Assembly (NCBI GenBank): GCA_012295275.1
Contig: CM022671.1
Span: forward strand, 36,394,001-36,458,000
From: Chrysomallon squamiferum
Taxonomy: Eukaryota; Animalia; Mollusca
Length of the DNA: 64,000 nucleotides
Direction: 5' to 3'
The translations under genes were made by a program, and so were the position numbers. Below the pieces are notes generated by a model. The model was given only the letters and a program-made list of their open reading frames with translations, made no database searches and was not told the origin of the DNA. This document shows positions 11,485 to 42,545 of this stretch, piece after piece. Each line of letters opens with the position of its first letter. Position 1 is the stretch's first letter.

Positions 11485-14443
11485 ATGCCTTTGCCTGCTG
11501 CTTTAGCTGCACGATTGGCCAAAAGGGGACTGGTAAAACCTGAAGAAATCAAGCTTCCACAAAAACCAGGTTTAATTATTTATATATATTAAATTGTAAA
11601 TAAATAAGCAGTAACCAAGGCAAGAGTACCGTCGTCTGATCTGATCCTAGGCTAGAGAATAGACCCAGTTACTAGTATTACTGTATTAGTCTGTTACAGT
11701 TGCTAGTACTGTATTTAACAATAATAATAAAAAAAAAGTATCCTAGCATTATATATTAAAAAATTATATCACATAACATTATAATTGACATATTACATGA
11801 TTTGATACCAAACTACGAAGACTGAATAAAAAAAAAAAAAAATTAAATGTGAAATTAAAATTAAATACATACGTAACATAGTGACAAAAAAAAAAAAAAA
11901 AAATAAATAAATAAATAAATAAATTAAAAAAGAAAGAAAGAAAGAACAAAATTGTTTAGTTAAGGAAGTTACAAATTCATTAAATATTTTTCCTTTGTAA
12001 GGAAAATTCTGATTCATATTATTACTGTTTATTTATAAATTTAATATATATTTTGTTATTTTTTGTGTATAAATGTACACATATAAGTAAACTTTATTCC
12101 TCCACTCCCCAGAAACTGAAGAAAACATTCTGCAGCATAAACTAATGGCTAAACTGGTAGTAGTACATATTAATTAATGTGCAGCCTAAGTCAATTTTTG
12201 GAATGAAAAGATATTCATTTAATTTTTGTTTTACTGTAGTTTATTTTCTTACATTTAGAGGAGGTTGAAGAGGTTTTTGCAGAGGACTATGATGATCCAT
12301 CCAATCCAGACACAACTTTGGAGTCCACCGTGAAAACAACCACCAACAGTATAGACACACCCACTGAACACACCCTTATCTATGAAACAGTTGCTTGTCC
12401 AAACAAATGGAACCCATACCACAAATGTGTGGCTTTTTGTCGTGGTCACTGGGGAGTTAAAGAGTTCATTCCAGAACCAGTGATGTTGAAACGCAGAGAA
12501 AGACATCTGAGGAAATATCCTCTTCCCGAAGGTTGGATAGAAGTAGCTGATCCAGAAACGTTAGTGCTTTTTTTTTTTTTTTTCTAAAATGAGCAGGTGA
12601 TACGTGAAAACCTGTGAAATCAATAACTTTTGTTTCTGTTAGGCATGATTACTGTTTACTTTGATTCTAGTTACTGTTGACTTTACTGTACATTTTCAGA
12701 GGCAGATACTACTACTGGAGTGTCACCACTGACCAAGTGTCCTGGCTCTCACCACTGCATCCACAGGCAACCATTACTTTACCTGCTGACAGACTACAAG
12801 GTACTCTGACTTACTCACGGACTACTTGCCAACAACTGTCTCACATATTTTGTATCTGTCTGGATTTTTCAGAACCAAATTCAAATATAAGCTAAAAAAA
12901 AATTACTGCTTAATCATCATAATTTGAACAAACCTCTTTGATTCCAGTTAATTATTATTCAGTTAGCATATTCAGTTAAATAGTGCCTCTAAAACAGATA
13001 TATCAAAGATTGTGGTATCACTAGAGTGTAAAACTAGTGTGTAAGAGCAGGTTTTTATCAATACTACAGTTTTTGCCTTTGTTACTTGTAATTCCACTGT
13101 GAATATTTTCTTTTCAGCCATGTTGGACAGTTCAGGGAGGGCTGACATAGCAAACAATGATGATGAACACATGGAAGTCCAGAGTGATCTGGTTTGTCAC
13201 AAATTATTATTAGTTTTTCTTTCTTGTTTGTCCTATTTTCTATCAACCTATATCTGTCTCTCTATCTATGCATGCACACATGTAAACAAAACTGAGGATG
13301 ACTAAATTGTAAAGAAGCAAAACAAGGTGTATTTTTGTACTGTTTCAGAGTGATCTAAGCAGTTCTGAATCTTCAAGTGATGGAGAACAAGAGAGACGCA
13401 GGGACAGAAACCGAGACAGGGGAAGACGATATTCACGAGGTCATAATGTAGAAAAAAAAGGTTTGTATTTTATCATTACATGAAAAAGGACAGGAAATAA
13501 ACTTTAAAAGTAACAAAAAATGTGATGATACAGTTGTCAGTGTATATGTATATAAACTGTTTACAATCAGTAAGAAACAGGATCAAGTACAAATGTTGTT
13601 TCCAGAGTATTGGTATCTCAAACGCAGCTGTTATTTGTTTAGATCCTCATGATGTTAAATTAAAATAATTTTTCAGGCAGCAAACGAGGTAAAGAAGACA
13701 CTTTGGATCCAATGGACCCTGCATCATACTCAGACATTCCTCGGTAAAGTTAATTTTAAATTTTAAATATACAGAGAAACCTTCCTAAAATCAAAACTCT
13801 CTTTAAACCAGACACAGTATTTTAATTTTTTTTTTTTATTATTTACAGTTTATTAGAATAACATAATAATAATACAAATAATTGTATACAAACTTAAACT
13901 TCCCTCCTCCAGCCCCCAAAAATGAAAGAAAATAGAAAAATATGAATACCTAATGTTAAAAAAACCCTACATTACATTCTGCAATATCAACTAACAACTA
14001 AATTAGAACATTTTAATTTTTAAATATTTTAGTTAAATCAAACTGTAGACCATGTTAATATTTAATTATTTTAGCTAGTAGTACATATTATTATTTAATT
14101 ATTTTTAATTGTAGAACCAGCACATTTTAGATTACAAATATTTAATTGATATTTAACTATTTTAGATAATACAAACTGTAGACTTAGTGCTATAGATATT
14201 TAAGTATTTTAGATAATACAAACTGTAAAACTCGTACATATAACAATTTAATAATGTGAACTGTAGGACTGAAACATATTTAATTATTTCAGGGGTTCGT
14301 GGTCTGATGGTCTAGATCAGAGAGGAAAGGCAAAGACTGGGGTGGATGTTACAGTCTCCGGTCCCCTTTTCCAGCAGCGTCCCTACCCCAGTCCTGGGGA
14401 CGTGTTACGTGCAAACAGAGAAATGTCAGAAAAAAAGACATAA
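11485..14443 (+). CDS. PQBP1: Polyglutamine-binding protein 1 (WW-domain splicing factor), 7 coding exons
   Basis: Exons 11485-11569, 12259-12559, 12700-12800, 13118-13191, 13349-13439, 13677-13743 and 14293-14443. Hallmarks: N-terminal [23 protein letters not shown] domain (LPEGW..GRYYYW..VSWLSP), [21 protein letters not shown], and [28 protein letters not shown] (YxxPxxVL motif). Confidence 0.95.
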
Positions 14444-15563
14444 TAATTAAAACAAACAAATAACTTTTTGCTTGAGAAAAGAAAGAGTATGCTGAGTTGG
14501 GTTGTTTCTTAACTATATTTTACAGTTTTACTCCGAGTTGATTGTTATTTTAATTCATTTACTTTTACGTTTGTCAGATATTTTTCACAAGATTATTTAC
14601 TAATTTACCTCCGCCTTTAAATAACACTGTTAACAACATACTTTAATATCTCAGCAGAAAAAGATGAAACTTGTTATTGTCATTCTGTTGGCTACTATTA
14701 ACTGATAAATGGTGTACAGTCTTTCATTTACAGAATATGTAGTGGCACTGTTGTTTCCAGAGACGGGGCTTACCTCCCCTTGTCATCCCTTAGTTCTTGC
14801 TCAGTTTGATTTATCATCTAGTACAGTTACCAAAACCATCATCGTATTATTGCAACCACCTTCTTCAGTTACTGAAACATGACTAAGTTTGATACAGTAT
14901 TTTTCAGCACTGTTAATTTAAGATGGCTGTTACAGTTGTGTATGTTGGTATTTCATTCTGTAGACACGGTGCACAAGGCACGTTATTTCGAGATGTTTCT
15001 GTCCTCTCAGAGCAAAGTCACTTGAGCATCACTGATCTGCTGGGGATGACATGTTCTGTCTGTGTTTCAACAAAACCATTTGTTTTATTTTTCACGAATT
15101 ATTATTATTATTTTTTTATATGTAAATAAAACTCATATGAATCAACATCTCAGATATGTAAAATATTTTCCCATTTGTTGTTGTTCTTGCATAATTGATG
15201 TATTCCTCATTTATAATAAAAGTTGACAGCTATATCAGATTAATAAAAAGGAAAAGAAGAAGATAATTCTTTCAATGTACTTTAAAGAATGTTCTTATTG
15301 TATTAGTTAATATAATAATAAAATCACTATTATTAATTTAATATTAAAAACAAAAATAAAAGAAAAGGTAAATTAATGTATTAGTAGGACTATTCAGTTA
15401 GCAGAATGAGAAAAGAATAATGTAAGAAATGATATTCATGTTAATGAAAGTAAGAAATGATACATTATAAACTATAATTTGATGTCAATCTGTCATTGTT
15501 ATTAAAAATCTGCTCACAGGAAGAGATAAAATATTCATAGGGTACATTATTTGTTCATATATA

Positions 15564-16284
15564 CAGTGGTACTTGACTTACAAATTTAATTCTTTCCGTG
15601 ACTGAGCTACTATCTGAGTTTGCTTGTAAATCAAATCAATTTTCGCAACTAAAATTAATTGAAATAACATTAATCCGCTCCAACCTCCCGAAAACCACAC
15701 CATTTTTTTTTTTTTTTTTTTGTAACGTGTTTTTAAATAAGAAAAATGTATTTAGAAATGACAAATATTGCATGAAAACAAACAAAAGAAATATATTCAT
15801 TTTGTAAAGTGTATGTATCTTGGAGATCAGACAAATTATTTTAACTCCTTCAGCTTCAGTATGGTACATACCATAAACATACTATGCTCGTACTGACCAG
15901 CCAAGTTAACTACATGCAGTCCTCGCTCATGTTTATCTATGAATTCAAACTTTAGTTCAATGGACATCATCGACTTCTTCTCAGCACTGTTCTTTGCACT
16001 CACTTTCTTAGGATCCATGGAAATTTATCAAATTACTGCATAAAACGCGAGCACAACACAACACTGATGCTTTTGCGGCGAAGTAATCACATGAAGTAAA
16101 CGAGGGAGACGCGGGATGCTGGTCGGATGTTGTGTTGTTCGTTGAGCCAACTAGCTGCGGCATATCTTAGGCTCGCTTGTAAATCGGAATTTGGCTCGCA
16201 ACCCAAAGCAAAAAATCGACTGGGCGACTGCTCGTAACTCGATAAACTCGTAAGTTGGGACACTCGTAAGTGGATGTACCACTG
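15564..16284 (-). mobile_element. Internally deleted Tigger/pogo-type (Tc1/mariner superfamily) DNA transposon, 721 bp
   Basis: TA|CAGTGGTAC...GTACCACTG|TA termini (TIRs with a TA target duplication). Minus-strand ORF 15836-16018 (MDPKKVSAK...SIELKFEFIDKHERG..V..LA.QY...VCTILK) resembles the CENP-B-type N-terminal HTH of Tigger transposases. Confidence 0.85.
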
Positions 16285-16547
16285 TATATTGGTGTGTGTG
16301 TGTGCGTGCGCGTGTGCGTTTATTTATTTATTTAAAAACAATCACAACAACATTGTTGTGTGTAAGATGAATTCCACTTCATTTGACTAACAACTGTATA
16401 ACGATTAGATAAGAACATATTTAACAGTGCGGAAACATCAACTACGACAACTACCAATGACGGAACTTTTTATTTCTGTGAAAAAGTCAACAATTTTCTT
16501 TTATTTCAGTTCTTTAATTCCGGTGTTATTTTCTACTATTTGGAAGG

Positions 16548-17502
16548 TCAGACAGAGAATGTGTAGTCTGAAATTAAAATATTCAAATAATATACATTAA
16601 ACAAAATAGTGAATACTTTTGGATATACTAAAAACAGTTTAACACATTTTGATATATTAACAAATGTAGCTCATTCAGAAATAATATAACTGTTTTGTTA
16701 ATACAGAAATGCAAAAAACCGTAAGCGACTTTTTCAGACATGACGTAGTGACGTCACTAACAAACCGAAGTGCTGCCTTAGAAACCAGTGATGTGTCTGA
16801 TCATGTCTTTTCACTCGTAAATTTGACAAGTGATTCATGCGATGTTGTTATTTACTATCCCTTGTTGTTATTTAATCAAACAATAACACTTCACATCATT
16901 TTCACTCGTTGCTTACATAAATATGTATCTAAATTTTCTGTTGAGAATTGTATAATAAATATTGATACCTAAATCTCTTTCACTTTATCTTTCTGTCATT
17001 GTTTCAAAAAGAGTGTCTGTGATTTAATGTTTTTTCTGAGAGTTTGTGACACAAACTTTTACACTTACCCGCTACCAGACAGTCGCATATGTTCGTATCG
17101 CTGTTGCAGAAGCCAAGTATTGCATTGTATTTATTTCTGCACTGAGATGAACAGAAGCTAGCATCATCCTGATCACTGCACGGAGGGCCATCCTTGAGTG
17201 TCGTGTCCCCAGCTGAATATTACAAGACAAGTTCTTATTGTATAAACTAATCGTTGCTGCGGTCATTTTAGTTCAAACGTGAAATATCAATTTATCCGCT
17301 TCTAGTATAGATCAATGACAATGTCGTGTAAAATGGAACATTAACATTTATTTTTGATTTCTTTCTTTGCTGCAAACACAGAGAATCATACGTTTCTTTT
17401 ATAATAACTTGCTCACCTATATTTCAGGGTTTATAAAGTAAGCCGCTGAGTCTACTGAGATTAAGCCAAGAAAACCCTCAAACTCAAACCCACCATTAAT
17501 AC

Positions 17503-17550
<48 letters not shown>

Positions 17551-17921
17551 TTCTCTCAGAGTAGGACGGTCAGTTGACGAAGACTCTGTCGGCCGTTGTC
17601 TTTATTTGAAAGGCTTGTCTGTGTACTTGGTACATTACGACTATAAAAATACTTTATGAGCAGACTGAAATGAGTCTACATTTCACGTGATCCTCGGCCT
17701 CTTACCAGCTTTGCGCGAGTCTGTATACATGCAAATCAAACTTGGAACATGCTCAAGAAATCAATTCGAGATATTAAAATCTTAATGTAATTTAAACTTT
17801 TAATATTAAGCTTGATAAATTTCGTTTCGAATTATTTGTACGTTCACATTTTACAACTACTGCGATACTTACATTGAACAAAGTAGAAAACCAGGAACAT
17901 TAGGAGATGTTTGCCAGTCAT
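16548..17921 (-). CDS. Secreted 6-Cys CS-alpha-beta defensin/toxin-like peptide, gene 1 (75 aa, acidic)
   Basis: Exons 17921-17873, 17720-17706, 17212-17069 and 16567-16548, all joined by phase-1 GT-AG introns: MTGKHLLMFLVFYFVQYSRKA-AGDTTLKDGPPCSDQDDASFCSSQCRNKYNAILGFCNSDTNICDCLVADYTFSV*. TATAAAAA lies ~80 nt upstream of the ATG. Confidence 0.85.
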
Positions 17922-17954
17922 CTTGACGCAGTGAAACCAAAAGTTGTGCGATTG

Positions 17955-18110
17955 GAGAATGTAGTAAGCAGAAGAGATAAAAACAGACAGAGCTGACGAG
18001 TTTTTATACTTTTAGATCTTCTACCAGCTGTTACTTGTGTAATCAGTAAAACTACAGTTTGTTTTAAAACTGTCATTGTGTTTAGGAAACTGCTGAGAGA
18101 TAAATGAAAA
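17955..18110 (-). promoter_or_regulatory. TATA-containing promoter/5'UTR module of peptide gene 1, shared by all family members
   Basis: TATAAAAA at 18001-18008 (minus strand) within a ~150-bp block that recurs at ~21225-21375(-), 23490-23630(+), 26255-26378(+), 35870-36020(-) and 37215-37340(+). Confidence 0.7.
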
Positions 18111-18389
18111 AGATTTTATAGATAGACTATTGCTTATTTATTAAACAAAATTCCTATTCAAATTTAAAAAAAAGAAGAAAAAAGTAAATTTTAAAATGTA
18201 AAGAAAGAAATATGCATTTTTTGTGAGTATTAATTTTTTTATGTGAAATTCAAATAAAAACAAAAATGTTATAGATGGAATAGTAATTATTTACTAAATA
18301 AACCTGCTATTTAAATAAATAATGTTTTAAATTTCCTGATGATAAAAATTATGTATATATATAAAATATTGACCTCAGGTAGACAAAAA

Positions 18390-18900
18390 GAAATACATTA
18401 AAAGAAGTATACCAAAGATTGTGTTCACTAAATGAGGTATATCAAAGACTGTGGTACATTAAAAAAAGTATATCAAAGACTGTGGTACATTAAAAAAATG
18501 TATATCAAAGACTGTGGTATATTAAAAGAATTATATCAAAGGCAGTTGTCATTAAAAGAATTATATCAAAGACTGTGGTATATCAAAAAATTTGGTTTAT
18601 TAAAAGAGATATATGTGGTCATTAAAAGAGGTATATAAAAAAAATGGTAGATTAAAACGTATATCAATATTAGTGTGTTTATAATATTACAGTGTATCAC
18701 TATAATGTAACACTACTGTGTAACGCTGTTGTGTTTGTAATATTAGAGTGTAATACTAGTGTATTTGTCACACTACAGTGTGTCACTAGAATGTAATACT
18801 AGTGTATTTGTAATACTAGAATGGAATACTGAAGTGTAAGTCTAGTGTGTTCGTAATGCTGGTGGATAATACTGGGGTGTAATACTAGAATCTTTGTAAT
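18390..18900. repeat. Degenerate minisatellites (~31-bp GTATATCAAAGACTGTGGTACATTAAAAGAA unit, then GTAATACTAG-type units)
   Basis: Direct reading. The first array recurs inverted at ~22810-23045 and direct at ~36460-36680. Confidence 0.75.
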
Positions 18901-19975: not shown

Positions 19976-21197
19976 TCAGATAACGAATCTGTAGTCTGAA
20001 ACTAAAATATTCAAAGAATATAGATTAATGAAAATAATGAATACTTTTTGATATATTAACAACAGTTTGATACATTTTGATATATTAACAAATTTAACTC
20101 ATTCAGATTTAAGATAACTCATTAGTTCACTCAGAAATAAGAAAATCGTAAGCGACTTTTTCGGACATGACGTAGTGACGTCACTAACAAACCGAAGTGC
20201 TTCCTTTGAAACCAGTGATGTGTCTGATCATGTCTTTTCACTCGTAAATTTGACAACTGATTCATGCGATGTTGTTATTTACTATTCCTTGTTGTTATTT
20301 AATCAAACAATAACACTTCACATCACTTTCACTCGTTGAATACATAAATATGTATCTAAATCTCTTTAACTTTATATTTCTGTTATTGTTTCAATAATAG
20401 TGTCAGTTTTCGTGTTTGTCTGAGTGACACAACGTTGTGTACTTACACCGCATCCAACATTTGCACAGTTTCGACTGCAGGTCGCAGAAGCCACTCACTG
20501 CATGATAATTTTTTCTGCATCCATCCAGACAGAAGTTGAGACGATCCTTTTCACTGCACTCAGGTCCATGCTTTACTTTCGTCTCGCCAACTGAAAGCAA
20601 CAAACAGATTTCTACTGAATAGACTAAACGTTGTAGCGTCACATTAATTTAAAATATGAATTTACCGTCATCAAGAAGAAATAAATGAAAATATCAAATA
20701 AAATACATTAGTATTTCCTTTTAATTTAATTATTTTTAAAAAAACACACACACTCTAAAATCCATACACGCATGCGCGATACTTTTATGATAAACGGGCG
20801 CCTGCTCACAGGTACAGCGTATTAACACAACAAAGACAAAACATCAACGTGAAGAAAAAATAATAATAAAAAATACATATAAAAAAATAAATAAGATTAC
20901 TTAATGAATACACTGAAATGGATCTTCATTTGACAGGCTTGTTTGTTTATTTAGCACGTGCTCTAACATTGCACGTGATTCTCGCCTCTTACCAGCTTTG
21001 CACGGGTCTGCATTCATGCAAATCGAACATGGAAGAAATCAACTAGGGACATCAACTTTTAATGTAATTTAGAATTTTAATATTTAACACGGTAAATTTC
21101 GTTTCGAATATTTTACATTATATATTTTACAGCTACTGCGACACTTACACTGAACAAGGTAGAAAACCAGGAACATTAGGAGAAGTTTACCAGTCAT
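19976..21197 (-). CDS. Secreted 6-Cys CS-alpha-beta defensin/toxin-like peptide, gene 2 (75 aa, cationic)
   Basis: Exons 21197-21149, 21007-20993, 20590-20447 and 19995-19976 (phase-1 introns): MTGKLLLMFLVFYLVQYPCKA-VGETKVKHGPECSEKDRLNFCLDGCRKNYHAVSGFCDLQSKLCKCWMRYYRFVI*. Confidence 0.85.
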
Positions 21198-23663: not shown

Positions 23664-24132
23664 ATGACTGGTAAACTTCTCCTAATGTTCCTGGTTTTCT
23701 ACTTTGTTCAATGTAAGTATCGCAGTAGTTGTAAAATGTGAACGTACAAATAATTCGAAACGAAATTTATCAAGCTTAATATTAAAAGTTTAAATTACAT
23801 TAAGATTTTAATATCTCGAATTGATTTCTTGAGCATGTTCCAAGTTTGATTTGCATGTATACAGACTCGCGCTAAGCTGGTAAGAGGCCGAGGATCACGT
23901 GAAATGTAGACTCATTTCAGTCTGCTCATAAAGTATTTTTATAGTCGTAATGTACCAAGTACACAGACAAGCCTTTCAAATAAAGACAACGGCCGACAGT
24001 CTTCGTCAACTGACCGTCCTACTCTGAGAGAATCATTATAATTATTATTATTACTAATGGTGGGTTTGAGTTTGAGCGTTTTCTGTGCTGATAGAAGAAA
24101 TATTTATTATTATTTATTTATTTATTTATTTA

Positions 24133-24184
<52 letters not shown>

Positions 24185-25077
24185 TTATTTATTTATTTAT
24201 TTTTTTTTTTTTTTTTTCTCGACGTAGAAGTTTTGTCTTTGTTGTGTTAATACGCTGTACGTGTGAGCAGGCGCCCGTTTATTAAACAAGTATCGCGCAT
24301 GCGTGTATGGATTGTATGCACGTTTCTGTGTGTTCTTAGCAAAGAAAGAAATTAAAATTAGAATACTAATGTTGTATTTTATTTGATATTTTCATTTATT
24401 TCTACTTGATGACGGTAAATACATATTTCACTTTTAAATTAATGTGACGCTACAAACGTTTAGTCTATTCAGTGGAAATCTGTTTGTTTCTTTCAGTTGG
24501 CGAGATGCGGTCAGTCTATGGTTCTCCCTGCTATCCTGGCGAGAGTTACGCGTACTGTGTTCATAAATGTCGGGAGAGTGGCTTGGGAATGTGGGCCTAT
24601 TGCGACCGGACGGCAAATATGTGCGTGTGCGTGAAGGCGCGTAAGTACATTTATGTTTTATATTCGTCCTTAAAAAGCGTTGAAACATGACAGACACTCG
24701 TATTCAAACAATGAAAGAAAGAATAAGATGTAGATATCTAATTTATCATAAAGCTCTCAACAGAAAATTTGGGTACATATTTACGTATTCAACGAATTAA
24801 AGTGATATGAAGTGTATTATTGTTTGATTAGATAACAACAAGGAATAATAAATATCAACATCACATGAATCAGTTGTCAAATTTACGAGTGAAAAGACAG
24901 TATCATGTGAGCTAATCAGTTATCTTGAATATGAATGAGCTAAATTTATTAATATATCAAAATGTATCCATTATTTAAAATACATTCATCTTTTATTATA
25001 TCAAAATATCTTCATTATTTTCGTTCATTCTATTAACATTCACTATTTTAATTTCAGACTCCTATATTAATCGATAA
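23664..25077 (+). pseudogene. CS-alpha-beta peptide gene 3 (inverted copy) with an in-frame TAA in micro-exon 2; a pseudogene unless exon 2 is skipped
   Basis: Exons 23664-23712, 23865-23879 (AAA changed to TAA at 23873-23875), 24497-24640 and 25058-25077. Exons 3-4 are intact: VGEMRSVYGSPCYPGESYAYCVHKCRESGLGMWAYCDRTANMCVCVKAHSYINR*. AATAAA at ~25125. Confidence 0.75.
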
Positions 25078-26254
25078 GCATTTAGCAAAATACTAACTAC
25101 TGTAGTTCGAACAATATTTTACAAAATAAACTGACACGATGTAACTTCTGTATTCTCCTTTTTTGTTAATGTAAATAAGTTAAGAACTTTCATTTTATAT
25201 TTGGGAATATAAAAACTGAGGAAGAACAGTATAAGACGAAACACGTTAACTATTTTAGACGTTGACTAGATCAGACAAAGACTGACCAAAACTGAAACAA
25301 TCGATTTTAATGAATTTCTTAGTGGCACTGACAGAGCTTGTCCACACAAGTAGATCACAGATTCTCACACAGACATCACAAGGTAGGAATTTCAAAACAA
25401 AAGGGCAGGAATTTCAGCTGGGGTGGGGGACTGGGGAGGAATTTCAAAGAGAGAAACAATGATTCTCGTGCTACATAACAAATGAATATACACAGCTGTA
25501 AGGGCCATCACGAATTAACAGTTCACACAAAATGTTGCATCAGACTCAATCCTGTTCTTTATTCAGATTCTGAAAAGCAGTTTAACAGTTTGTTCCATCT
25601 GAAATAATTAAATATTAATATATACTATTACTTAAAATAAAAAATGTTGGTATGTCCTATGTTATCTAAAATAATTAAATACTAACATGTACAAGTTCTG
25701 CTGATCGTATTACTTTAAATAATTAAACATTAATATACATTAGTTCTACAGTTTGTATTACCTAAAACAATTAAAGTTATTTATTTATTTATTTATATAT
25801 TTATTTATTTTCAACTACTGTGTAAGATATATAAATGTGAGTGGGAGACCGGCAAGTCGTGTTTCCTCAAAGACTCGGCAGACGTGAGAACAACACATAA
25901 AACGTAATCGTTATCATTCTAGTTGTACGTTTATGACATTTTTCTTTATCGAGCATAACCCACGAACTAATTAAAATAGTTCTAGTAGCGTCCATCTGTT
26001 TCTATTCATTTTACATAAAACATATTTTTGAAAACAATTACCGAAAATTATGTAATAATTTATTTCATTTCTTGCATATTGTCTTTCGTTCGATGTCCTG
26101 CCTATAATGTAATTAACATTCATTCAGTAATAATTCAAATTAATAAGCAAATAAAAAGAACAACTATATTACGTTTTCGGGATTTTGTTTTTCTCATAAG
26201 TAAATAATATTCTGTCCGTAAAATGTCTGGGGTTTTTTCTCAAAAAAGATTCCT

Positions 26255-27020
26255 AAACACACTGACAGTTTTACAGCAAACTATAATTTTACAAAAGTAA
26301 CCGCTGCTAGAATATATAAAAGTATAAAAACTCGTCAGCTCTGTCTGTTTTTATCTCTTCTGCTTACTACATTCTCCGCTGTTACTTTTTGGGTGTTTGT
26401 AGCGGATAGTGGGTGTGACAAAACTTGCTCAGTAGATGGAAATCACGACAGGTTTTTTTTTAGTTTGAAAGCACTGTGTAAAACAGGGTGTGTGTGTGTT
26501 TTAAAATAATTGTACATGCGTCCATGTGGGTTTGAAAGTGTGTGAAAGAAACAAGTTAAAAGTGAATATTAATGTTGTATTTTCCTTGACATGCAGTGAT
26601 CAGTTTCACTGTCGGAGTTGGATTTAATGCGCTTGCCGCCCATAGGCTAAAGAAATTTTACCTCCCCCTCGTCAACACTCCTCACCCTTCCCACTTAGTT
26701 TATATAACATGAATGGTTATAACTTATGATCTAGTTGAAAGCAAAAACATGGTTTTACATTTACATAATGATTTATTTATAAATCAAATGTGGAATTACG
26801 AATTTACGCAAAAACTGCCGCCCTAGGCTCTAGCCTAGAAAGCCTGTCTGGGAAAACCGGCCCTGATCACTGTAATTACGATGGTAAATTAATATTTAGT
26901 TTTTCAACTAATATGTGTCGTAGAACGATTAGTTCGTACAAATTACCTTTCTCGTAATATACTCTTGGCGAGACGATAATCTTCGATGGCCCTGCGTGCC
27001 AAGGGAATTCACATTCTCTA
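26255..27020 (+). pseudogene. Relic of a further CS-alpha-beta peptide gene (promoter plus 5' third of exon 3)
   Basis: Promoter module with TATA at ~26324; exons 1-2 are absent. From 26965 it reads GETIIFDGPAC (compare GDTTLKDGPPC, GETKVKHGPEC). The acceptor AG is lost and the remaining Cys are missing. Confidence 0.7.
26613..26865. mobile_element. Putative hAT-type MITE (~253 bp)
   Basis: Flanked by an 8-bp near-direct repeat (ttcactgt / atcactgt). Right end is AAAACCGGCCCTG; left end is the degenerate inverse CGGAGTTGGATTT. Confidence 0.5.
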
Positions 27021-27699
27021 GGGCTCAGGGCTTTTTTATGGAGAGGTGCTAAGGACTCTTATATCGCTTTTGTAACTGTTTAGTTAAAATGAAAAGTCTT
27101 TGAAAAAGTTACTGAGAATGTAATATATTCACGTTTCTTTGGTTCCTGAGGGGGGAGGGAGGGAGGGAGTGAGTGAGGGATGGGGGGGGCGATGCAACAA
27201 TTTACTTTTATAATTTGTACCATTTATTACTTGTATAATTAGTAAAACTACAGTTTGTTATAAAACTGTCATTGTGTTTAGGAAACTGCTGAGAGATAAA
27301 TGAAAAAACATTTTACACTCAGTGTTACCTATTTAGAAGAAAAAAAAACCCAGTGGAAATATTATATATATATTTAAATGTATTTTAAAATATGTAGTAC
27401 GCGGAATGTAATGCAGTAGATTATCATAAACTTAACAATAAAAAAATATTGGTGTGTTTTACACATATTTATCTATTTTAGCTAGTTTACATACTGGAAA
27501 CATGATAGATGTTATCAATACTAGGACTGTGCAGGATTTTAATGAAGTAAACGAAACAGTTTATATACAACATTAAAAGTGACTAACTGAGAAATGAAAA
27601 ACAAATAATGGAACTAACTAATGCATACGTCAGGTTAAGAAATGAGTAAAGTGACTAATAGTTGTGTAGCTGAGGGTAAGAAAAAGTGACCAACATACG

Positions 27700-28930
27700 A
27701 CATGTTAATGTCACAGAAATAACATCGATACAGTTTATATGTCGTTAGTTAAGATATTTAATGTAGTGGAAACATGGATTCAGTGGATATTGGTTAAATG
27801 ATATTTATTCACTTTCTGATATTTAATAATAGGGACATAATTTGCCTCATGGGTATATTATATGTTAATGAAATACCACGGATACAATTTGTGTTAAATG
27901 ACATGGATACATTTTATGCTAATTAAATAACCGCGATACAGTTTGTTAGATCAGTGATATAAATGCAGTTTATGTCAGTTAAATAACATAGAGCTGTTTA
28001 CGTTTGTTAAATAACATGGATAGAGTTTATGTCAGTTATTCAGCAAAATTATCTGGTGCCGGCGATGTGTTTGTGACTGGCATGTTCTACATGGAAGAGA
28101 GTGGCAAGTCAGTGTCTGTTCTTATTTTGACAGTGTATAATGTATAACTAACCTGTGTCAGTGACAATTCTTATAGATACATTTTAAATTGTTTAATCTG
28201 GCTTTCATCTGGATTCTTATATTTATTTATTTATTTATTTATTTATTTATTATTTTATTTTTTGGGGGTGGAATTCCCTGTGATATTAACTCACACTGCA
28301 GCACTGAAATTGTAAATAAAACTATTCAAATATTTGTATTATAAATTGTTGTATCGCTTATGATTATCTGGCTCGTAATTAAATAGTAGATATACCGTAA
28401 CTCGTGCTTATTCCTCATGTGGGGAGATAGAACTGTTCCTTTATACACACTGGTGTCAAATTAGTTTTCAAATTCCTTGTCAGGTGGGTACAAAACGTGA
28501 TTAACTGTCAAACTGAATCCTGGTAAAACACTCCACACGACACAGTTAATAACAGGGATGCGATTTATGTTAGTTAAACGGCATGTATACAGTTTATGTT
28601 AGTTATATAATATGTATACAGTTTATGCTCATTAAATAGCAAGGATACATTCAATGCTGGTTAAGTAACATCGATATAATTTATGTTAGTAATTAACGTG
28701 AATACAGTTTAGTCATATAATGTGTATACAGTTTATATTAGTTATATAATTTGTTAGTAAATAAGTGGATAGTTAAATAATGTGTATAGTTTGTTAGTTA
28801 AATAACATGGATACAGTATACGTATGTTAAATAAAAAGGAGACAGTTTATGTTAGTAAATACCGTGGATACAGTTTGTTAAATAATATCAGTACAGTATA
28901 TGTTAGTTATATAACAAGCTAACAGTTGAT
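27700..28930. repeat. Degenerate ~30-bp minisatellite (GTTAAATAACATGGATACAGTTTATGTTA-like) in two blocks
   Basis: Direct reading; duplicated at ~38630-39830. Confidence 0.7.
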
Positions 28931-29387
28931 GGTAGGTTAAACCCTTTGGACGATAGTTGGAAAAGTTTAATTTTTGAGAAGATTATAAACATTCTTACCT
29001 CATACCATACCTTTTTAATTTTTTTTTTTCAATTCAAGGTAATTTGTTTTGACTATTATTATTTGTTTTAATACATAGTATATTTATACATAGTATACTG
29101 TAGTTGTATACACAATCGTACGTAAATACATACAAACGAACTTACTCAAGTACACACATATATATTGGTTTAACGGACATTAATTTTTGTTTCTATATGA
29201 TGTTAATCAAATGGAAACTTCGATACAACATTTGTCTGCACGTATGCTCTCTCTCACGTACAAATAAAATTGTAATTGTCATTATATATTATTCTTAATG
29301 CTTTTGCTGTCACTCAGGAAACAAACTGCGCATGTCCATCATTGTCTACCACTAAGTCAAATTTAGATTTCTGAAAAACGTTTATCT

Positions 29388-29434
<47 letters not shown>

Positions 29435-30956
29435 TAATAAATAAATAAATAAATAAATAAAGCTATTTTGTTGGTTACAAATTTGATCGATAGGAACCAA
29501 ATATTCACTAATTTTCTACCAAATATATTTGACTGCTTTTCAAGAGATATTAAAAAAGAAGAAAAAGAAAAGAAACATAAAATACAATAAAGACTACACA
29601 ACACAGTATAAAATATATTTGTATGTGATATATATGTATATGTATATATATACACAATAAAATGTGTAACACACAGAATATAATGATAACACACAGAATA
29701 TAATGATCACAAACTTAACAATGAATAAGGTTAGTGTATTTTACATAGTTCTCTGTTTTACATATTTTTCATACAGGCAACACAACAGCTGTTTTCCAGT
29801 GTTTGGACTATACCACAATTTAATAAACTTAATAAATAACATAATTTTTAAAACTGTGTTACAAGGAATAATACTGAAATAAGAAATAAGTAAAATAACT
29901 AACATACGTATAGCACAGGGTAAAAAATAAGTAAAGTGACTAACATATGGATAGCTGAGGATAAAAATACACTGAATAAAAACGAGTATTCGCACCAAGC
30001 TAGAGTTATCTGCCTTTCTACATTATGAAACAAAGTCACGCACTAAGCACTCGTTTAACTAAGAAAATAGTTCTTCATGGCAGAGTGGGGCACATTTAAC
30101 CGACGACTTTTACCAATAAATCTACACAGACTGCACTTCCTGTCTTTGCAGTATTGTTTCCACATGTACACATTTCTCCCTGCCAGAAATCTCCCAAGTT
30201 GTCTTTGCTTCACAACAGGAACAAATATGCGGATAAAACACACTATTCACAGAAATGCTACTAGAATTGATTTACATCCTTTAAGATTAATAAAATAAAT
30301 ACTGTGGAATGAAAATACTTCCGGGGAATGGTAATATTCCTACAGCAAAACGAAACACAGAAAGTGGATTTTATCCAGTGAGAAGTTGAGAGTAAACTGT
30401 GAACACATTAATTGAATAACATGATTATTCAAATACATCTTACAATATTCAACAGTTGACCTATATCACTTTTTACACTTCATTAATTTCTCACACAGAC
30501 AAACAAATCACAACTTAGTTTACAAGTAAAACCTTAAAAAGGTCTCTCTTCAAATACAACTTCACAATGTTTTCACTTTACAAAAATAAAAAATATAATA
30601 AAAAAATTTATAATAATAAAAAAAAATATGTATAATATAAAATAAAATAAAATAAAATATTTTTTAAATAAATAAAAATTACAATTTTCTCCCTTCACTA
30701 ATGAAACTTTACAATAATCTGACTTTGAACAGGAAAGTTTACCAAATGCATATTAGTTTCCTCTAACCAAATATTATAAACACTGCAGTTTGTTCACACT
30801 TAAATACTGACTACATGTTAAACAGAGAGCAAAATAAGACAATTTTAAATTCAAAATAAAAACACTGTGAATATATTTAAATTAATCTTTTGTTTTGGTT
30901 TCGTTCTGTTGCAGATTGTAATCACTAGATTACTTATCTTGAACATATGTATGTTG

Positions 30957-30997
<41 letters not shown>

Positions 30998-31567
30998 CAT
31001 GATAATCATGATGATGATGACAATGACAATACGAATAATGAAAACAAAGTTAGAAATATTTCTTAGAAATATATTTCTGAAAATAGGAGTAAACTATACA
31101 ACGAATGCACAGAATGTTTAACATCAAAACAAAATGTGTATGCACTCATTCAGAAAAGAAAGAAAGACGATACCATTGCACTTGATAAATGTAACTGCAT
31201 GTTTTACATGTAAACAGAGGCTCTAGGTTTGGAATGAAATAAAACATTTTTCACTTGCTACTCATGTATTAATGGTTCTATTAAATGTGTTTGTTTTCTG
31301 AAAGAGGCTATCTGTTGCATCAAAGATTTGATTAAACCAGGCAGTAAGCAGGATTAACTGAGAGGTGTTCTTTCTTAACTGTGTCTTGCAGCAACAGCAA
31401 ATTACAAATCTTATAATAACATTTATATAACATTTATATATTTACTTTTACAGATGTTACAGTTGTTAGTAAAATTAATGGTAGCAGATAATAAAATAAC
31501 AGTCTGGATACACAAACACAAAGTGAATAATGAGCTGTATTAGCTGAAATAATAAAACTTGTTTTAT

Positions 31568-31778
31568 TTATATTTTCGGAGCACTTTTGTCCACAGTGGT
31601 TGTCTTTTTCAGTGTTTGTTTGCTGAAACTTGAAATTGATCCAAGCAAAGCTCCTCGACTCTCCACTCCTACTGGAGGGCTGGTTGCATTAGGAGGGGGT
31701 GGAGGAGGCGGTACACATCCAAGCGGAGGGGGTGGAGGAGGCGGTACACATCCAGACGGAGGGGGTGGTGCTGGAACT
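31568..31778 (-). pseudogene. Orphan duplicate of the PXK last exon (poly-Pro + WH2), with its 3'UTR extending leftwards
   Basis: Matches 42546-42723 apart from an extra 33-bp tandem unit. It is truncated at the duplication junction, so the native acceptor is missing. Confidence 0.85.
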
Positions 31779-31786
31779 CAGACATT

Positions 31787-32474
31787 CTCAGACATTCCTC
31801 GGTAAAGTTAATTTTTAATTTTAAATATACAGTGAAACCTTCCTAAAATCAAAACCAGACACAGTATTTTAATTTTTGTTTTTTTATTATTTACAATTTA
31901 TTAGAATAACATAATAATAATACAAATAATTGTATACAAACTTAAACTTCCCTCCTCCAGCCCCCCAAAATGAAAGAAAATAGAAAAATATTAATACCTA
32001 ATGTTAAAAAAAAAAACTACATTACATTCTGCAATATCAACTAACAACTGAATTAGAACATTTTAATTTTTAAATATTTTAGTTAAATCAAACTGTAGAC
32101 CATGTTAATATTTAATTATTTTAGCTAGTAGTACATATTATTATTTAATTATTTTAAATTGTAGAACCAGCACATATTAATATTTAAGTATTTTAGATAA
32201 TACAAACTGTAGACTTAGTGCTATTGATATTTAAGTATTTTAGATAATACAAACTGTAAAACTCGTACATATAACAATTTAATAATGTGAACTGTAGGAC
32301 TGATACATATTTAATTATTTCAGGGGTTCGTGGTCTGATGGTCTAGATCAGAGAGGAAAGGCAAAGACTGGGGTGGATGTTACAGTCTCTGGTCCCCTTT
32401 TCCAACAGCGTCCCTACCCCAGTCCTGGGGACGTGTTACGTGCAAACAGAGAAATGTCAGAAAAAAAGACATAA
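31787..32474 (+). pseudogene. Orphan duplicate of the PQBP1 3' end (end of exon 6, intron 6, intact last exon 32324-32474)
   Basis: The last exon encodes the same GSWSDGL...[21 protein letters not shown], with only two synonymous changes (TCC>TCT, CAG>CAA). Confidence 0.85.
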
Positions 32475-33587
32475 TTAAAAAAAACAAAAAACTTTTTGCT
32501 TGAGAAAAGAAAGAGTATGCTGAGTTGGGTTGTTTCTTAACTATATTTTACAGGTTTACTCTGAGTTGATTGTTATTTTAATTCATTTACTTTTACGTTT
32601 GTCAGATATTTTTCACAAGATTATTTACTAATTTACCTCCGCCTTTAAATAACACTGTTAACAACATACTTTAATATCTCAGCAGAAAAAGATGAAACTT
32701 GTTATTGTCATTCTGTTGGCTGCTATTAACTGATAAATGGTGTACAGTCTTTCATTTACAGAATATGTAGTGGCACTGTTGTTTCCAGAGTCGGGGCTTA
32801 CCTCCCCTTGTCATCCCTTAGTTCCTGCTCAGTTTGATTTATCATCTAGTACAGTTACCAAAACCGTCATCATATTATTGCACATTCTTCAGTTACTGAA
32901 ACATGACTAAGTTTGATACAGTATTTTTCAGCACTGTTAATTTATGGTGGCTGTTACAGTTGTGTATGTTGGTATTTCATTCTGTAGACACGGTGCACAA
33001 GGCACGTTATTTCGAGATGTTTCTGTCCTCTCAGAGCAAAGTCACTTGAGCATCACTGATCTGCTGGAGATGGCATGTTCTGTCTGTGTTTCAACAAAAC
33101 CATTTGTTTTATTTTTCACGAATTATTATTATTATTATTTTATATGTAAATAAAACTCGTATGAATCAACATCTCAGATATGTAAAATATTTTCCCATTT
33201 GTTGTTGTTCTTGCATAATTAATGTATTCCTCATTTATAATAAAAGTTGACAGCTATATCAGATTAATAAAAAGGAAAAGAAGAAGATAATTCTTTCAAT
33301 GTACTTTAAAGAATGTTCTTATTGTATTAGTTAATATAATACTAAAATCACTATGTATAATTTAATATTAAAAACAAAAATAAAAGAAAATGTAAATCAA
33401 TGTATTAGTAGGACTATTCAGTTAGCAGAATGAGAAAAGAATAATGTAAGAAATGATATTCATGTTAATGAAAGTAAGAAATGATACATTATAAACTATA
33501 ATTTGATGTCAATCTGTCATTGTTATTAAAAATCTGCTCACAGGAAGAGATAAAATATTCATAGGGTACATTATTTGTTCATATATA

Positions 33588-34314
33588 CAGTGGTACTTGA
33601 CTTACAAATTTAATTCTTTCCGTGACTGAGCTACTATCTGAGTTTGCTCGTAAATCAAATCAATTTTCGCAACTAAAATTAATTGAAATAACATTAATCC
33701 GCTCCAACCTCCCGAAAACCACCCCATTTATTATTTATTTTTATTATTTATTTTTATTATTAACGTGTTTTAAATAAGAAAAATGTATTTAGAAATGACA
33801 AATACTGCATGAAAACGAACAAAAGAAATATATTCGTTTTGTATGTATCTTGGAGATCAGACAAATTATTGTAACTCCTTCAGCTTCAGTATGGTACATA
33901 CCATAAAAATACTACGCTCGTACTGACCAGCCAAGTTAACTACATGCAGTCCTCGCTCATGTTTATCTATGAATTCAAACTTTAGTTCAATGGACATCAT
34001 CCACTTCTTCTCAGCACTGTTCTTTGCACTCACTTTCTTAGGATCCATGGAAATTCATCAAATTACTGCATAAAACGCGAGCACAACACAACACTGATGC
34101 TTTTGCGGCGAAGTAACCACATGAAGTAAACGAGGGAGACGCGGGATGCTGGTCGGATGTTGTGTTGTTCGTTGAGCCAACTAGCTGCGGCATATCTTAG
34201 GCTCGCTTGTAACTCGGAATTTGGCTCGCAACCCAAAGCAAAGAATCGACTGGGCTACTGCTCGTAACTCGATAAACTCGTAAGTTGGGACACTCGTAAG
34301 TGGATGTACCACTG
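33588..34314 (-). mobile_element. Second copy of the deleted Tigger-type element, carried by the segmental duplication
   Basis: Same TIRs, TA target site and flanks as 15564-16284; HTH ORF at 33866-34048. Confidence 0.85.
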
Positions 34315-34549
34315 TATGTGTGTGTGTGTGTTTATAATTTCATTTATTAGAAAAAACCCGACAACAACATGGTTATGTGTAAGATGAATTCCACTACATT
34401 TGACTAAAAACTGTATAAAGATTAGATAAGAACATGTTTAACAGTGCGGAAACATCAACTACGACAACTACCAATGACTGAACTTTTTATTTCTGTGAAA
34501 AAGTCGACAGTTTTCTTTTATTTCACTTTTTTAATTATGGTGTTATTTT

Positions 34550-35539
34550 CTACTGTTTGGGAGGCCAGCGAGAGAATGGGTAGTCTGAAATTAAAATATT
34601 CAAATAATATACATTAAACAAAATAGTGAATACTTTTGGATATACTAAAAACAGTTTAACACATTTTGATATATTAACAAATGTAGCTCATTCAGAAATA
34701 ATATAACTGTTTTGTTAATACAGAAATGCAAAAAATCGTTGGCGACTTTTTCAGACATGACGTAATGACGTCACTAACAAACCGAAGTGCTTCCTTAGAA
34801 ACCAGTGATGTGTCTGATCACGTCTTTTCTCTCGTAAATTTGACAACTGATTCATGCGATGTTGTTATTTACTATCCCTTGTTGTTATTTAATCAAACAA
34901 TAACACTTCATATTACTTTTACTCGTTGAATACGAAAATATGTATCTAAATTTTCTGTTGAGAATTGTATAATAAATGTTGATACCTAAATCTCTTTCAC
35001 TTTATCTTTCTGTCATTGTTTCAAAAAGAGTGTCTGTGATTTAATGTTTTTCTGAGAGTTTGTGACACAAACTTTTACACTTACCCGGTACCAGACACTT
35101 GCATGTGTTCGTATCGCTGTCGCAGTAGCCAAGTATTGCATTGTATTTATTTTTGCACTGAGATGAACAGAAGCTAGCATCATCCTGATCACCGCACGGA
35201 GGGCCATCCTTGAGTGTCGTGTCCCCAGCTGAATATTACAAGACAAGTTTTTATTGTATAAACTAATCGTTGCTGCGGTCATTTTAGTTCAAACGTGAAA
35301 TATCAATTTATCCGCTTCTAGTAGAAATAAACGACAATGTCGTGTAAAATGGAACATTAACATTTATTTTTGATTTCTTTCTTTGCTGCAAACACAGAGA
35401 ATCATACGTTTCTTTTATAACAAGCTTGCTCACCTATATTTCAGGGTTTATAAAGTAAACCGGTGCTATCTCAATCAACTGAGATTAAACTAAGAAAACC
35501 CTCAACCTAAAACCCATCTACCAAAAAAAGAAAACCGCC

Positions 35540-35605
<66 letters not shown>

Positions 35606-35838
35606 TATCCTCGGCCTCTTACCAGCTTTGCGCGAGTCTGTATACATGCAAATCAAACTTGGAACATGCTCAAGAAATCAATTCGAGATATTAAAATCTT
35701 AATGTAATATAAACTTTTAATATTAAGCTTGATAAATTTCGTTTCGAATTATTGGTACGTACATATTTTACAACTACTGCGATACTTACACTGAACAAAG
35801 TAGAAAACCAGGAACGTTAGGAGAAGTTTACCAGTCAT
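34550..35838 (-). CDS. Secreted 6-Cys CS-alpha-beta defensin/toxin-like peptide, gene 4 (80 aa; recent paralog of gene 1)
   Basis: Exons 35838-35790, 35637-35623, 35228-35085 and 34584-34550: MTGKLLLTFLVFYFVQYSRKA-AGDTTLKDGPPCGDQDDASFCSSQCKNKYNAILGYCDSDTNTCKCLVPDYPFSRWPPKQ*. Confidence 0.85.
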
Positions 35839-37214
35839 CTTGACGCAGTGAAACCAATAGTGATGCGACTGGAGAATGTAGTAAGCAGAAGAGATAAAAA
35901 CAGACAGAATAGACGAGTTTTTATACTTTTAGATCTTCTACCAGCTGTTACTTGTGTGATTAGTAAATCTACAGTTTGTTTTAAAACTGTCATTGTGTTT
36001 AGGAAACTGCTGAGAGATAAATGAAAAAGATTTTATAGATAGACCTTTACTTATTTATTAAACAAATTTCCTATTCAAATTTTAATGAAAATAATAAATA
36101 AATTTTAAAATGTACAGAAAGAAATATGCTTTTTTGTGAGTGTTAATTTTTTTATGTGAAATCCAAATAAAAACAAAAATGTTATAGATGGAATATTAAT
36201 TATTTACTAAATAAACCTGCTATTTAAATTAAAAACAAACAAACAAAAAACACATAAATTTTAAAAGGTAAATAAAGAAATATGCTGTCTTTGTCAGTGT
36301 TAATTCTTTATGTGAAATCCAAAGAAATAAAAAACAGTATTGTAGATGGAATATTAATTATTTACTAAATAAACCTCCCGTTTAAATAAATAATGTTTTG
36401 AATTTCCTGATGATAAAAATTATGTATATATATAAAATATTGACCTCAGGTAGACTAAAAGAAATACATTAAAAGAAGTATACCAAAGACTGTGTTCACT
36501 AAATGAGGTATATCAAAGACTGTGGTACATTAAAAAAAGTATATCAAAGACCGTGGTATATTAAAAGAGATATATATAAAAAAAACTGTAGTATATAAAA
36601 AAATGTGGTTTATTAATAGAAGTATTACAAAAAATGTAGTATATTAAAAGAAGTATAACAAAAACTGTGGTACTGTGTCAGATATATAAATGACATATAA
36701 ACATTAATATACATTAGTTCTACAGTTTGTATTACCTAAAACAATTAAAGTTATTTATTTATTTATTTATTTTCAACTACTGTGTAAGATATATAAATGT
36801 GAGTGGGAGACCGGCAAGTCGTGTTTCCTGAAAGACTCGGCAGACGTGAGAACAACACATAAAACGTAATCGTTATCATTCTAGTTGTACGTTTATGAAA
36901 TTTTTTTCTTTATCAAGCATAACCCACGAATTAATTAAAATAGTTCTAGTAGCGTCCATTTGTTTCTATTCATTTTACATAAAAAATATTTTTGAAAACA
37001 GTTACCGAAAATTATGTAATAATTTATTTCATTTCTTGCATATTGTCTTTCGTTCGACGTCCTGCCTATAATGTAATTAACATTCATTCAGTAATAAGTC
37101 AAATTAATAAGCAAATAAAAAGAACACCTATATTACGTTTTCGGGATTTTGTTTTTCTCATAAATAAATAATATTCTGTCCGTAAAATGTCTGTTTTTTT
37201 TCTCAAAAAAGATT

Positions 37215-37970
37215 CCTAAACACACTGACAGTTTTACAGCAAACAATAATTTTACAAAAGTAACAGCTGCTAGAAGATCTAAAAGTATAAAAACTCGTCA
37301 GCTCTGTCTGTTTTTATCTCTTCTGCTTACTACATTCTCCGCTGTTACTTTTTGGGTGTTTGTGTGACAAAACTTGCTCAGTAGATGGAAATCACGACAG
37401 TTTTTTTTTTTAGTTTGAAAGCACTGTGTAAAACAGGGTGTGTGTGTGTTTTAAAATAATTGTACATGCGTCCATGTGGGTTTGAAAGTGTGTGAAAGAA
37501 ACAAGTTAAAAGTGAATATTAATGTTGTATTTTCCTTGACATGCAGTGATCAGTTTCACTGTCGGAGTTGGATTTAATGCGCTTGCCGCCCATAGGCTAA
37601 AGAAATTTTACCTCCCCCTCGTCAACACTCCTCACCCTTCCCACTTAGTTTATATAACATGAATGGTTATAACTTATGATCTAGTTGAAAGCAAAAACAT
37701 GGTTTTACATTTACATAATGATTTATTTATAAATCAAATGTGGAATTACGAATTTATGTAAACTGCCGCCCTAGGCTCTAGCCTAGAAAGCCTGTCTGGG
37801 AAAACCGGCCCTGATCACTGTAATTACGATGGTAAATTAATATTTAGTTTTTCAACTAATATGTGTCGTAGAACGATTAGTTCGTACAAATTACCTTTCT
37901 CGTAATATACTCTTGGCGAGACGATAATCTTCGATGGCCCTGCGTGCCAAGGGAATTCACATTCTCTAGG
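37215..37970 (+). pseudogene. Duplicate of the peptide-gene relic (promoter + GETIIFDGPAC), including the MITE at 37563-37813
   Basis: Near-identical to 26255-27020; the exon-3 remnant starts at 37913. Confidence 0.7.
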
Positions 37971-40355: not shown

Positions 40356-40415
<60 letters not shown>

Positions 40416-41911: not shown

Positions 41912-41958
<47 letters not shown>

Positions 41959-42545
41959 CATGATAATCATGATGATGATGACAATGACAATACGAATAAT
42001 GAAAACAAAGTTAGAAATATTTTTTAGAAATATATTTCTGAAAATAGGAGTAAACTATACAACGAATGCACAGAATGTTTAACATCAAAACAAAATGTGT
42101 ATGCACTCATTCAGAAAAGAAAGAAAGACGATACCATTGCACTTGATAAATGTAACTGCATGTTTTACATGTAAACAGAGGCTCTAGGTTTGGAATGAAA
42201 TAAAACATTTTTCACTTGCTACTCATGTATTAATGGTTCTATTAAATGTGTTTGTTTTCTGAAAGAGGCTATCTGTTGCATCAAAGATTTGATTAAACCA
42301 GGCAGTAAGCAGGATTAACTGAGAGGTGTTCTTTCTTAACTGTGTCTTACAGCAACAGCAAATTACAAATCTTATAATAACATTTATATAACATTTATAT
42401 ATTTATAACATTTATATATTTACTTTTACAGATGTTACAGTTGTTAGTAAAATTAATGGTAGCAGATAATAAAATAACAGTCTGGATACACAAACACAAA
42501 GTGAATAATGAGCTGTATTAGCTGAAATAATAAAACTTGTTTTAT

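Follow-up and report, generated by a model that had tools for sequence, protein, structure and literature searches.

We analysed a 64-kb window (the whole stretch of 64,000 nt) of Chrysomallon squamiferum, AT-rich animal DNA with 30% GC, in which four genes for predicted cysteine-rich peptides (genes 1–4) lie among a Kelch-repeat gene, PQBP1, a PX-domain kinase-like gene with a WH2 end, and a gene for N-acylglucosamine 2-epimerase (Table 1). The top match of the epimerase came from Gigantopelta aegis (77%; runner-up 71%, 472 hits), which makes a gastropod close to that genus the likely host; Gigantopelta is a vent snail carrying symbionts. Genes 1, 2 and 4 are read from the minus strand and gene 3 from the plus strand. 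A plus-strand open frame of 897 nt was also seen at 7663–8559, between the Kelch gene and PQBP1.

Table 1 Positions of the peptide genes and of the duplicated units within the window
Feature	Position	Strand	Remark
Gene 4 peptide exon (exon 3)	35085..35228	-	144 nt, phase 1 at both ends, six Cys
Gene 1 peptide exon	17069..17212	-	8 nonsynonymous differences from gene 4
Gene 1 predicted signal-peptide exon, coding part	17873..17921	-	16 codons + 1 nt; hydrophobic core
Gene 4 predicted signal-peptide exon, coding part	35790..35838	-	
Gene 1 predicted exon 4, coding part	16548..16567	-	Short tail and stop; AATAAA 42 nt past the stop
Gene 4 predicted exon 4	34550..34584	-	3 nonsynonymous differences; common stop lost, tail longer by 5 residues
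Gene 2, older paralog	19976..21197	-	Signal 21149-21197, peptide exon 20447-20590, exon 4 19976-19995
Gene 3, inverted older paralog	23664..25077	+	Signal 23664-23712, peptide exon 24497-24640, exon 4 25058-25077
Unit A: PQBP1 end and gene 1	13725..18600 (right end approximate)	.	Self-BLAST, alignment
Unit B: duplicate of unit A, contains gene 4	31783..36670 (right end approximate)	.	Self-BLAST, alignment
Tandem-duplication junction	31679..31841	.	Copy of WH2 exon (PX-kinase-like gene) fused to PQBP1 exon end
PQBP1 last coding exon, functional copy	14293..14443	+	Match to solved PQBP1 C-terminus, E 7e-14; RNA contig match begins at 14292
PQBP1 last exon, orphan copy	32324..32471	+	Upstream PQBP1 exons not duplicated
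Unit C, duplicate of unit D (36698-42713)	25724..31735	.	Other half of the tandem duplication

The four peptide genes share one layout. Their leader exon of 16 codons is hydrophobic and near-identical across the genes, and the predicted precursors, with an N-terminal nine-residue hydropathy of 2.6–2.9, are predicted to start with a signal peptide. In all four, exon 3 spans 144 nt in phase 1 at both ends and encodes the array C-x8-C-x3-C-x10-C-x6-C-x-C; it ends at a GTAAGT donor, so the frame runs on into a further exon. This exon 4, a prediction from sequence signals alone, begins at a TTTCAG acceptor ~420–500 nt downstream that is kept in 4/4 genes, reaches a phase-1 stop at the identical codon in genes 1, 2 and 3 (TGG in gene 4, which gains five residues), and is followed in every gene by a polyA-type hexamer. 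Open frames, splice sites and the six Cys are intact throughout. An alternative exon-4 acceptor near 14870 was rejected: the frames beyond it disagree between genes, and it lies inside the stretch under a PQBP1 RNA contig. That contig (run X7, 14292–15250) suggests that the PQBP1 3′ UTR reaches to at least 15250, toward the convergent peptide gene, and at 14440 and 14461 it has the states of unit B. Exons 3 and 4 had no contig in this single RNA run, which carries no information on their expression. Exon 3 of gene 1 is 40% identical to that of gene 2 and 26% identical to that of gene 3.

The structural model of the peptide (pLDDT 93.5) has a strand–helix–strand–strand order (E4-10, H19-28, E32-36, E41-46), and its top structure matches were plant defensins, followed by short scorpion-type peptides and drosomycin. 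Foldseek comparison with plant defensins and drosomycin reached a probability of up to 1.0 and a TM of up to 0.73, with E values of 0.06 or higher, while the VIA fold comparison gave Z 5.2 (under 8) and rmsd 2.2 over 44–46 aligned residues; sequence identity to these proteins was 14–28%. The motifs CxxxC and CxC lie within the six-Cys array of all four genes (spacing 8,3,10,6,1), and the gamma-core GxC, usual but not obligatory, reads GFC in genes 1 and 2 and GYC in gene 4, with AYC in gene 3. The motif suggests the pairing C1-C4, C2-C5, C3-C6. Net charges of exon 3 are −4 and −3 in the anionic genes 1 and 4, and +3 and +1 in the other two. Pfam matches all fell below cut-offs (Defensin_like E 0.008, Gamma-thionin E 0.025), with no match for two of the four peptides; the best Atlas score, 0.83, was below threshold and is a lead only, and a second Atlas search gave no usable match. 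Neither a word search with one peptide or with the alignment nor a comparison with solved sequences returned a sequence homologue. The sole match of a profile search among 1.84 billion proteins, a 697-aa tandem-repeat protein, was rejected on inspection, as were 26 metagenome loci matched by pattern, the six-Cys array being present in 0/26.

On the model, the peptides would be six-Cys CS-alpha-beta peptides, plant-defensin-like in fold, a likeness that does not show common descent with plant defensins. They resemble the six-Cys invertebrate defensins, as outlined in PMC5116183, in the CxxxC on the helix, the CxC on the last strand and the predicted N-terminal signal peptide, and also in the GxC of genes 1, 2 and 4; they differ from them in a predicted extra N-terminal strand, in the anionic charge of genes 1 and 4 and in a best Pfam E value of only 0.008. 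The beta-alpha-beta-beta order is that of plant defensins and drosomycin, which, unlike the peptides described here, have eight Cys and a fourth disulfide closing the N- and C-termini. All four predicted precursors contain six Cys and no other Cys, which excludes the eight-Cys families and a fourth disulfide, and sets the peptides apart from mussel defensin, myticin and mytilin as PMC5116183 and PMC7168163 define them. Myticin C and the mytilins also have a cationic mature peptide (PMC3164099, PMC7168163), and the mytilins carry a long anionic C-terminal extension, as described in PMC7168163, whereas the tail predicted here is 6–11 residues long. According to the superfamily definition in PMC5116183, six-Cys spacing cannot separate toxins from antimicrobials, and gastropod CS-alpha-beta members were little characterised at the time of that account. 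From the fold and precursor layout, the products may work like secreted CS-alpha-beta defence peptides, possibly with an antimicrobial role.

The cluster owes its present form to a tandem duplication that begins late in PQBP1 and extends to the final exon of the PX-kinase-like gene, with the units in the order A+C then B+D; genes 2 and 3 are present only in the first copy. Units A and B are true tandem duplicates, 2.9% divergent, while units C and D differ at 93 of 5833 sites (1.6%), about half of that though they stem from the same duplication (P 2e-5). Six DNA runs (X1–X6) were available as contigs only; contigs lose variants, and the states in X2, X4, X5 and X6 come partly from totals of diagnostic sites. 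A 163-nt contig with one difference crosses the duplication junction in X2, X5 and X6, which belong to three studies, and in a fourth run (X4) a contig covers 31756, inside the junction, so that a crossing contig is among the listed contigs in 3/4 runs. Gene-1-type and gene-4-type copies were moreover both found in contigs of single runs. Together, these two observations reject an assembly artefact in which alleles were placed in tandem, and an artefact of any kind, consensus errors included, seems to us highly improbable. At the junction (31735–31800), a proline-rich minus-strand WH2 exon that contains one additional 24-nt repeat unit is joined to a PQBP1 splice donor.

Terminal inverted repeats and a degraded transposase-like frame mark a high-copy element present in both units A and B (15561–16285 and 33585–34316), which therefore inserted before the duplication. 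Units C and D contain pieces resembling the 5′ UTR exon of the peptide genes (26179–26377, 37143–37340, 27203–27315 and 38143–38232) with no leader or peptide exon after them, which may be remnants or a repeat.

The original prediction had read positive selection from the peptide exons of genes 1 and 4, with the PQBP1 last exon as an internal control from the same duplication. The two PQBP1 copies do differ at only 2/148 aligned sites, both synonymous, an outcome with a chance of ~6% without selection. Unit B, in turn, contains of PQBP1 only this exon and ~20 nt of the preceding one with its splice donor. The comparison is invalid as a control because it sets a working exon against an orphan exon that has no upstream gene. 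Run X3 carries further variants of the PQBP1 last exon at 14317, 14326 and 14338, all synonymous.

Our recount of the peptide exon itself agrees with the earlier one: 8/144 nt differ between genes 1 and 4, every change is nonsynonymous, and the six Cys are kept. By exon-3 codon number on the minus strand, the changes are S13G, R26K, F35Y, N37D, I42T, D44K and A48P, D44K taking two nucleotide changes that are nonsynonymous whichever path is followed. The proposed clustering in the C-terminal hairpin was likewise recovered, with 5/7 changed residues on the final two strands of the model or immediately beyond them and 6/8 nucleotide changes in the last third of the exon (P = 0.02, nominal, the test having been chosen post hoc). 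That all Cys remain untouched would be expected by chance in ~33% of cases. About 76% of exon-3 sites are nonsynonymous, so a ratio of 8:0 is expected by chance 9–14% of the time (P(0 synonymous of 8) = 0.085–0.143, or 0.088 with the empirical mutation spectrum of the locus). The locus was chosen from the 64-kb window after the fact, and all P-values given here are nominal.

Background divergence was counted after masking five poorly aligned repeat/indel zones. Against a background that still included exon 4, the 8/144 differences gave Fisher P 0.08 (all non-coding DNA) and 0.31 (local). An exon-3 divergence within the non-coding range had been named beforehand as evidence against selection, and the result leans partly that way: at least eight differences occur in 4/26 non-overlapping non-coding windows of 144 sites, which places exon 3 inside their range. 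With exon 4 excluded, non-coding divergence was 110/3751 overall, 35/1071 (3.3%) in the introns of the gene and 54/1333 when UTRs were added, and the exon-3 pN of 7.6% compares with these at P 0.015, 0.033 and 0.080, respectively. CpG/CpA transitions, a class that differs at 17/152 non-coding sites, make up 3/8 of the exon-3 changes, and after accounting for this class and for overdispersion, P rose to 0.07–0.16. Adjacent differences are also in excess in non-coding DNA (11 pairs observed vs 3.2 expected); laying the real non-coding difference patterns on the reading frame gave P(N ≥ 8, S = 0) of 0.007–0.02. The 8:0 ratio is true, but by itself it is weak and only marginally beyond chance.

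This count was also partial. It omitted the signal exon, in which genes 1 and 4 differ by two nonsynonymous and two synonymous changes and which weakens the case, and it missed the predicted exon 4, which strengthens it with three nonsynonymous changes and the stop loss. The nonsynonymous-to-synonymous ratio becomes 11:0 for the mature region (exons 3 and 4; P = 0.046, or 0.034 with the empirical spectrum) and 13:2 for the whole coding sequence (P 0.24, or 0.19). Mature-region pN is 9.3% vs 3.3% in the introns of the gene (Fisher P = 0.004), and permutation of non-coding patterns gave P(N ≥ 11, S = 0) of 0.001–0.004, while correction for CpG class and overdispersion gave 0.02–0.07. The UTRs are divergent as well: the 3′ UTR beside exon 4 differs at 9/87 sites (10%), as much as the mature region, and the 5′ UTR at 10/175. 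The peak of divergence therefore extends beyond coding sites, and its 3′ UTR part is compatible both with a divergence peak due to selection and with an older tract of conversion.

Comparison with the older paralogs revealed a patchwork of identity. Genes 1 and 3 differ at 1/180 sites in the 5′ part of intron 2 and 1/163 in the 5′ UTR, but at 78/144 in exon 3; genes 1 and 2 at 47/451 in intron 3, but at 52/144 in exon 3; and genes 2 and 3 at 22/185 in the 3′ part of intron 2, but at 71/144 in exon 3. This pattern is likely the product of repeated gene conversion that spared the peptide exon. The inverted 5′ part of gene 3 (23281–24056) nearly matches that of gene 1 (17527–18316), the peptide exons of the two being 26% identical in protein, and we read this near-identity as a probable recent conversion, or a swap of promoter and leader. 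A similar arrangement is known from the red/green opsins, where introns are homogenised, a coding exon stays divergent and divergence peaks form under gene conversion (PMC3924837). Unlike in the opsins, the peak described here takes in UTR sequence.

Codon models across the four genes were suggestive only, as they draw on four sequences with one saturated branch and recombination. Pairwise dN/dS in the mature region was 0.56/0.34 for genes 1 and 2, 1.04/0.73 for genes 2 and 3, and 1.07/1.25, below 1, for genes 1 and 3, and single-omega fits gave 1.1–1.3, no different from 1. The M1a/M2a comparison returned an LRT of 7.7 on exon 3 and of 14.9 once exon 4 was added, with about half of the sites in the latter set at an omega near 7. 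This larger LRT was reached in 0/61 runs of a null with double-nucleotide changes, and with site-rate variation it held at P = 0.010 (1/58 null runs); for exon 3 alone, the signal was lost under site-rate variation (P = 0.13, 12/83 null runs). Gene conversion can itself imitate positive selection, as discussed in PMC3924837.

We somewhat favour diversifying selection on the mature-peptide exons of genes 1 and 4, with gene conversion mixing the four-gene cluster. Neither the 8:0 count nor the PQBP1 comparison establishes positive selection; with the predicted fourth exon and the older paralogs taken in, it is the likeliest reading. Under such selection, three disulfides, inferred from the motif, would hold the fold and leave exposed residues of the tail and the C-terminal hairpin free to alter the binding surface. 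New variants might be favoured for recognising different microbial targets. Conversion would homogenise promoters, signal exons and introns, and would be resisted at the peptide exons.

Relaxed constraint, which we rank behind selection and hold to be possible though doubtful, would have the Cys and a few Gly conserved while the rest drifts neutrally, CpG decay, clustered mutations and conversion tracts producing 8:0 by chance. Much of the above is compatible with this: a chance frequency of 9–14% for the ratio, a single omega of 1.1–1.3, CpG involvement in 3/8 changes, mutations as clustered as the 11 adjacent pairs, a background as uneven as 1.6% (C/D), 2.9% (A/B) and 10% (3′ UTR), and the lost stop codon of gene 4. 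Relaxed constraint has, moreover, been argued for the C-terminal extensions of mytilins, which have a four-exon layout, in PMC7168163. Weighing against it are the mature-region excess, at P 0.02–0.07 after correction and 0.001–0.006 by permutation, the four-gene test of exons 3 and 4 with rate variation (P = 0.01), and the intact frames, splice sites and six-Cys arrays of all four genes.

Diversifying selection of this kind would have precedent, as tandem myticin-C genes are reported to undergo recombination or conversion together with positive selection in the mature and C-terminal regions (PMC3164099). The family itself looks new and the selection pattern already known. Among the titles listed, our literature search found no description of this peptide family (supplements of genome papers could list the genes) and nothing pairing Peltospiridae with an antimicrobial peptide. 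The locus would thereby add an apparently undescribed gastropod family with a defensin fold and a young duplicate caught diverging, converting and lengthening its tail, an evolutionary pattern already known from mussel immune peptides.

Among individuals, the differences between genes 1 and 4 do not sort cleanly by copy. In both X1 and X3, a single contig directly carries gene-1 states over 17072–17089 and at 17137, and gene-4 states at 17105, 17110 and 17177. Two of the switches between states are 16 and 27 nt apart, closer than the 31-nt assembly word (a size we infer), so the mosaic would exist as actual molecules and not arise from bubble choices. At 17105, 17110 and 17177, the gene-4 state was direct in 3/3 DNA runs and agrees with the counts in X2, X4 and X5. 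Runs X2 and X5 match gene 1 at 35088 and 35098, with totals of 14/17 and 21/24 diagnostic sites that fit the X1/X3 haplotype; X4 and X6 have gene-4 states at 35088/35098 and totals that fit gene 4 over 17072–17110, X6 requiring one more unlisted change. Both states therefore occur among the listed contigs at 4/8 exon-3 sites (I42T, D44K, A48P), while S13G, R26K, F35Y and N37D show a single state among the listed contigs of the six runs and are likely polymorphic or private. In the exon-4 region, two separate contig types were present in X2, X3, X5 and X6.

Of the eight exon-3 differences, about half are thus likely still segregating, and the original prediction, by placing them after the duplication as changes between paralogs, overstated their fixation. 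Restricted to sites with both states among the contigs, the ratio falls to 4:0 for exon 3 (P 0.33) and 7:0 with exon 4 (P 0.14); synonymous changes occurred in neither the fixed nor the segregating class. The X1/X3 mosaic and the shared gene-4 states at 17105, 17110 and 17177 fit a balanced or transient polymorphism at a copy-variable locus, in which selection, if any, would maintain alleles within the species rather than separate paralogs. We consider this quite improbable, as contigs drop variants, the exon-4 cluster forms two types in four runs, and the 17072–17089 cluster has both states across runs. Four states of the window, those of gene 1 at codons 13, 35 and 37 and that of gene 4 at codon 26, are absent among the listed contigs, partly by count, as consensus errors might be; yet gene 1 agrees with gene 2 at codons 13 and 35, as expected of ancestral alleles.

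An unlikely extension of the favoured reading, by analogy with the nodule cysteine-rich peptides of legumes, is that these lineage-specific, partly anionic, plant-defensin-shaped peptides manage the bacterial symbionts of the vent snail, and that the youngest copies are now diversifying in their hairpin and tail, in step with symbiont strains differing between individuals. If the peptides did act on the symbionts of the animal, the locus would carry much greater weight.

Contig depths in X2 over 34258–34609 and 35085–35400 were ~129 for the gene-1 type, 62 for the gene-4 type and 185 for shared contigs, with 244–336 near exon 3. This ratio is unlike the roughly 1:1:2 of X3 and X5 and weakly hints at copy-number variation.
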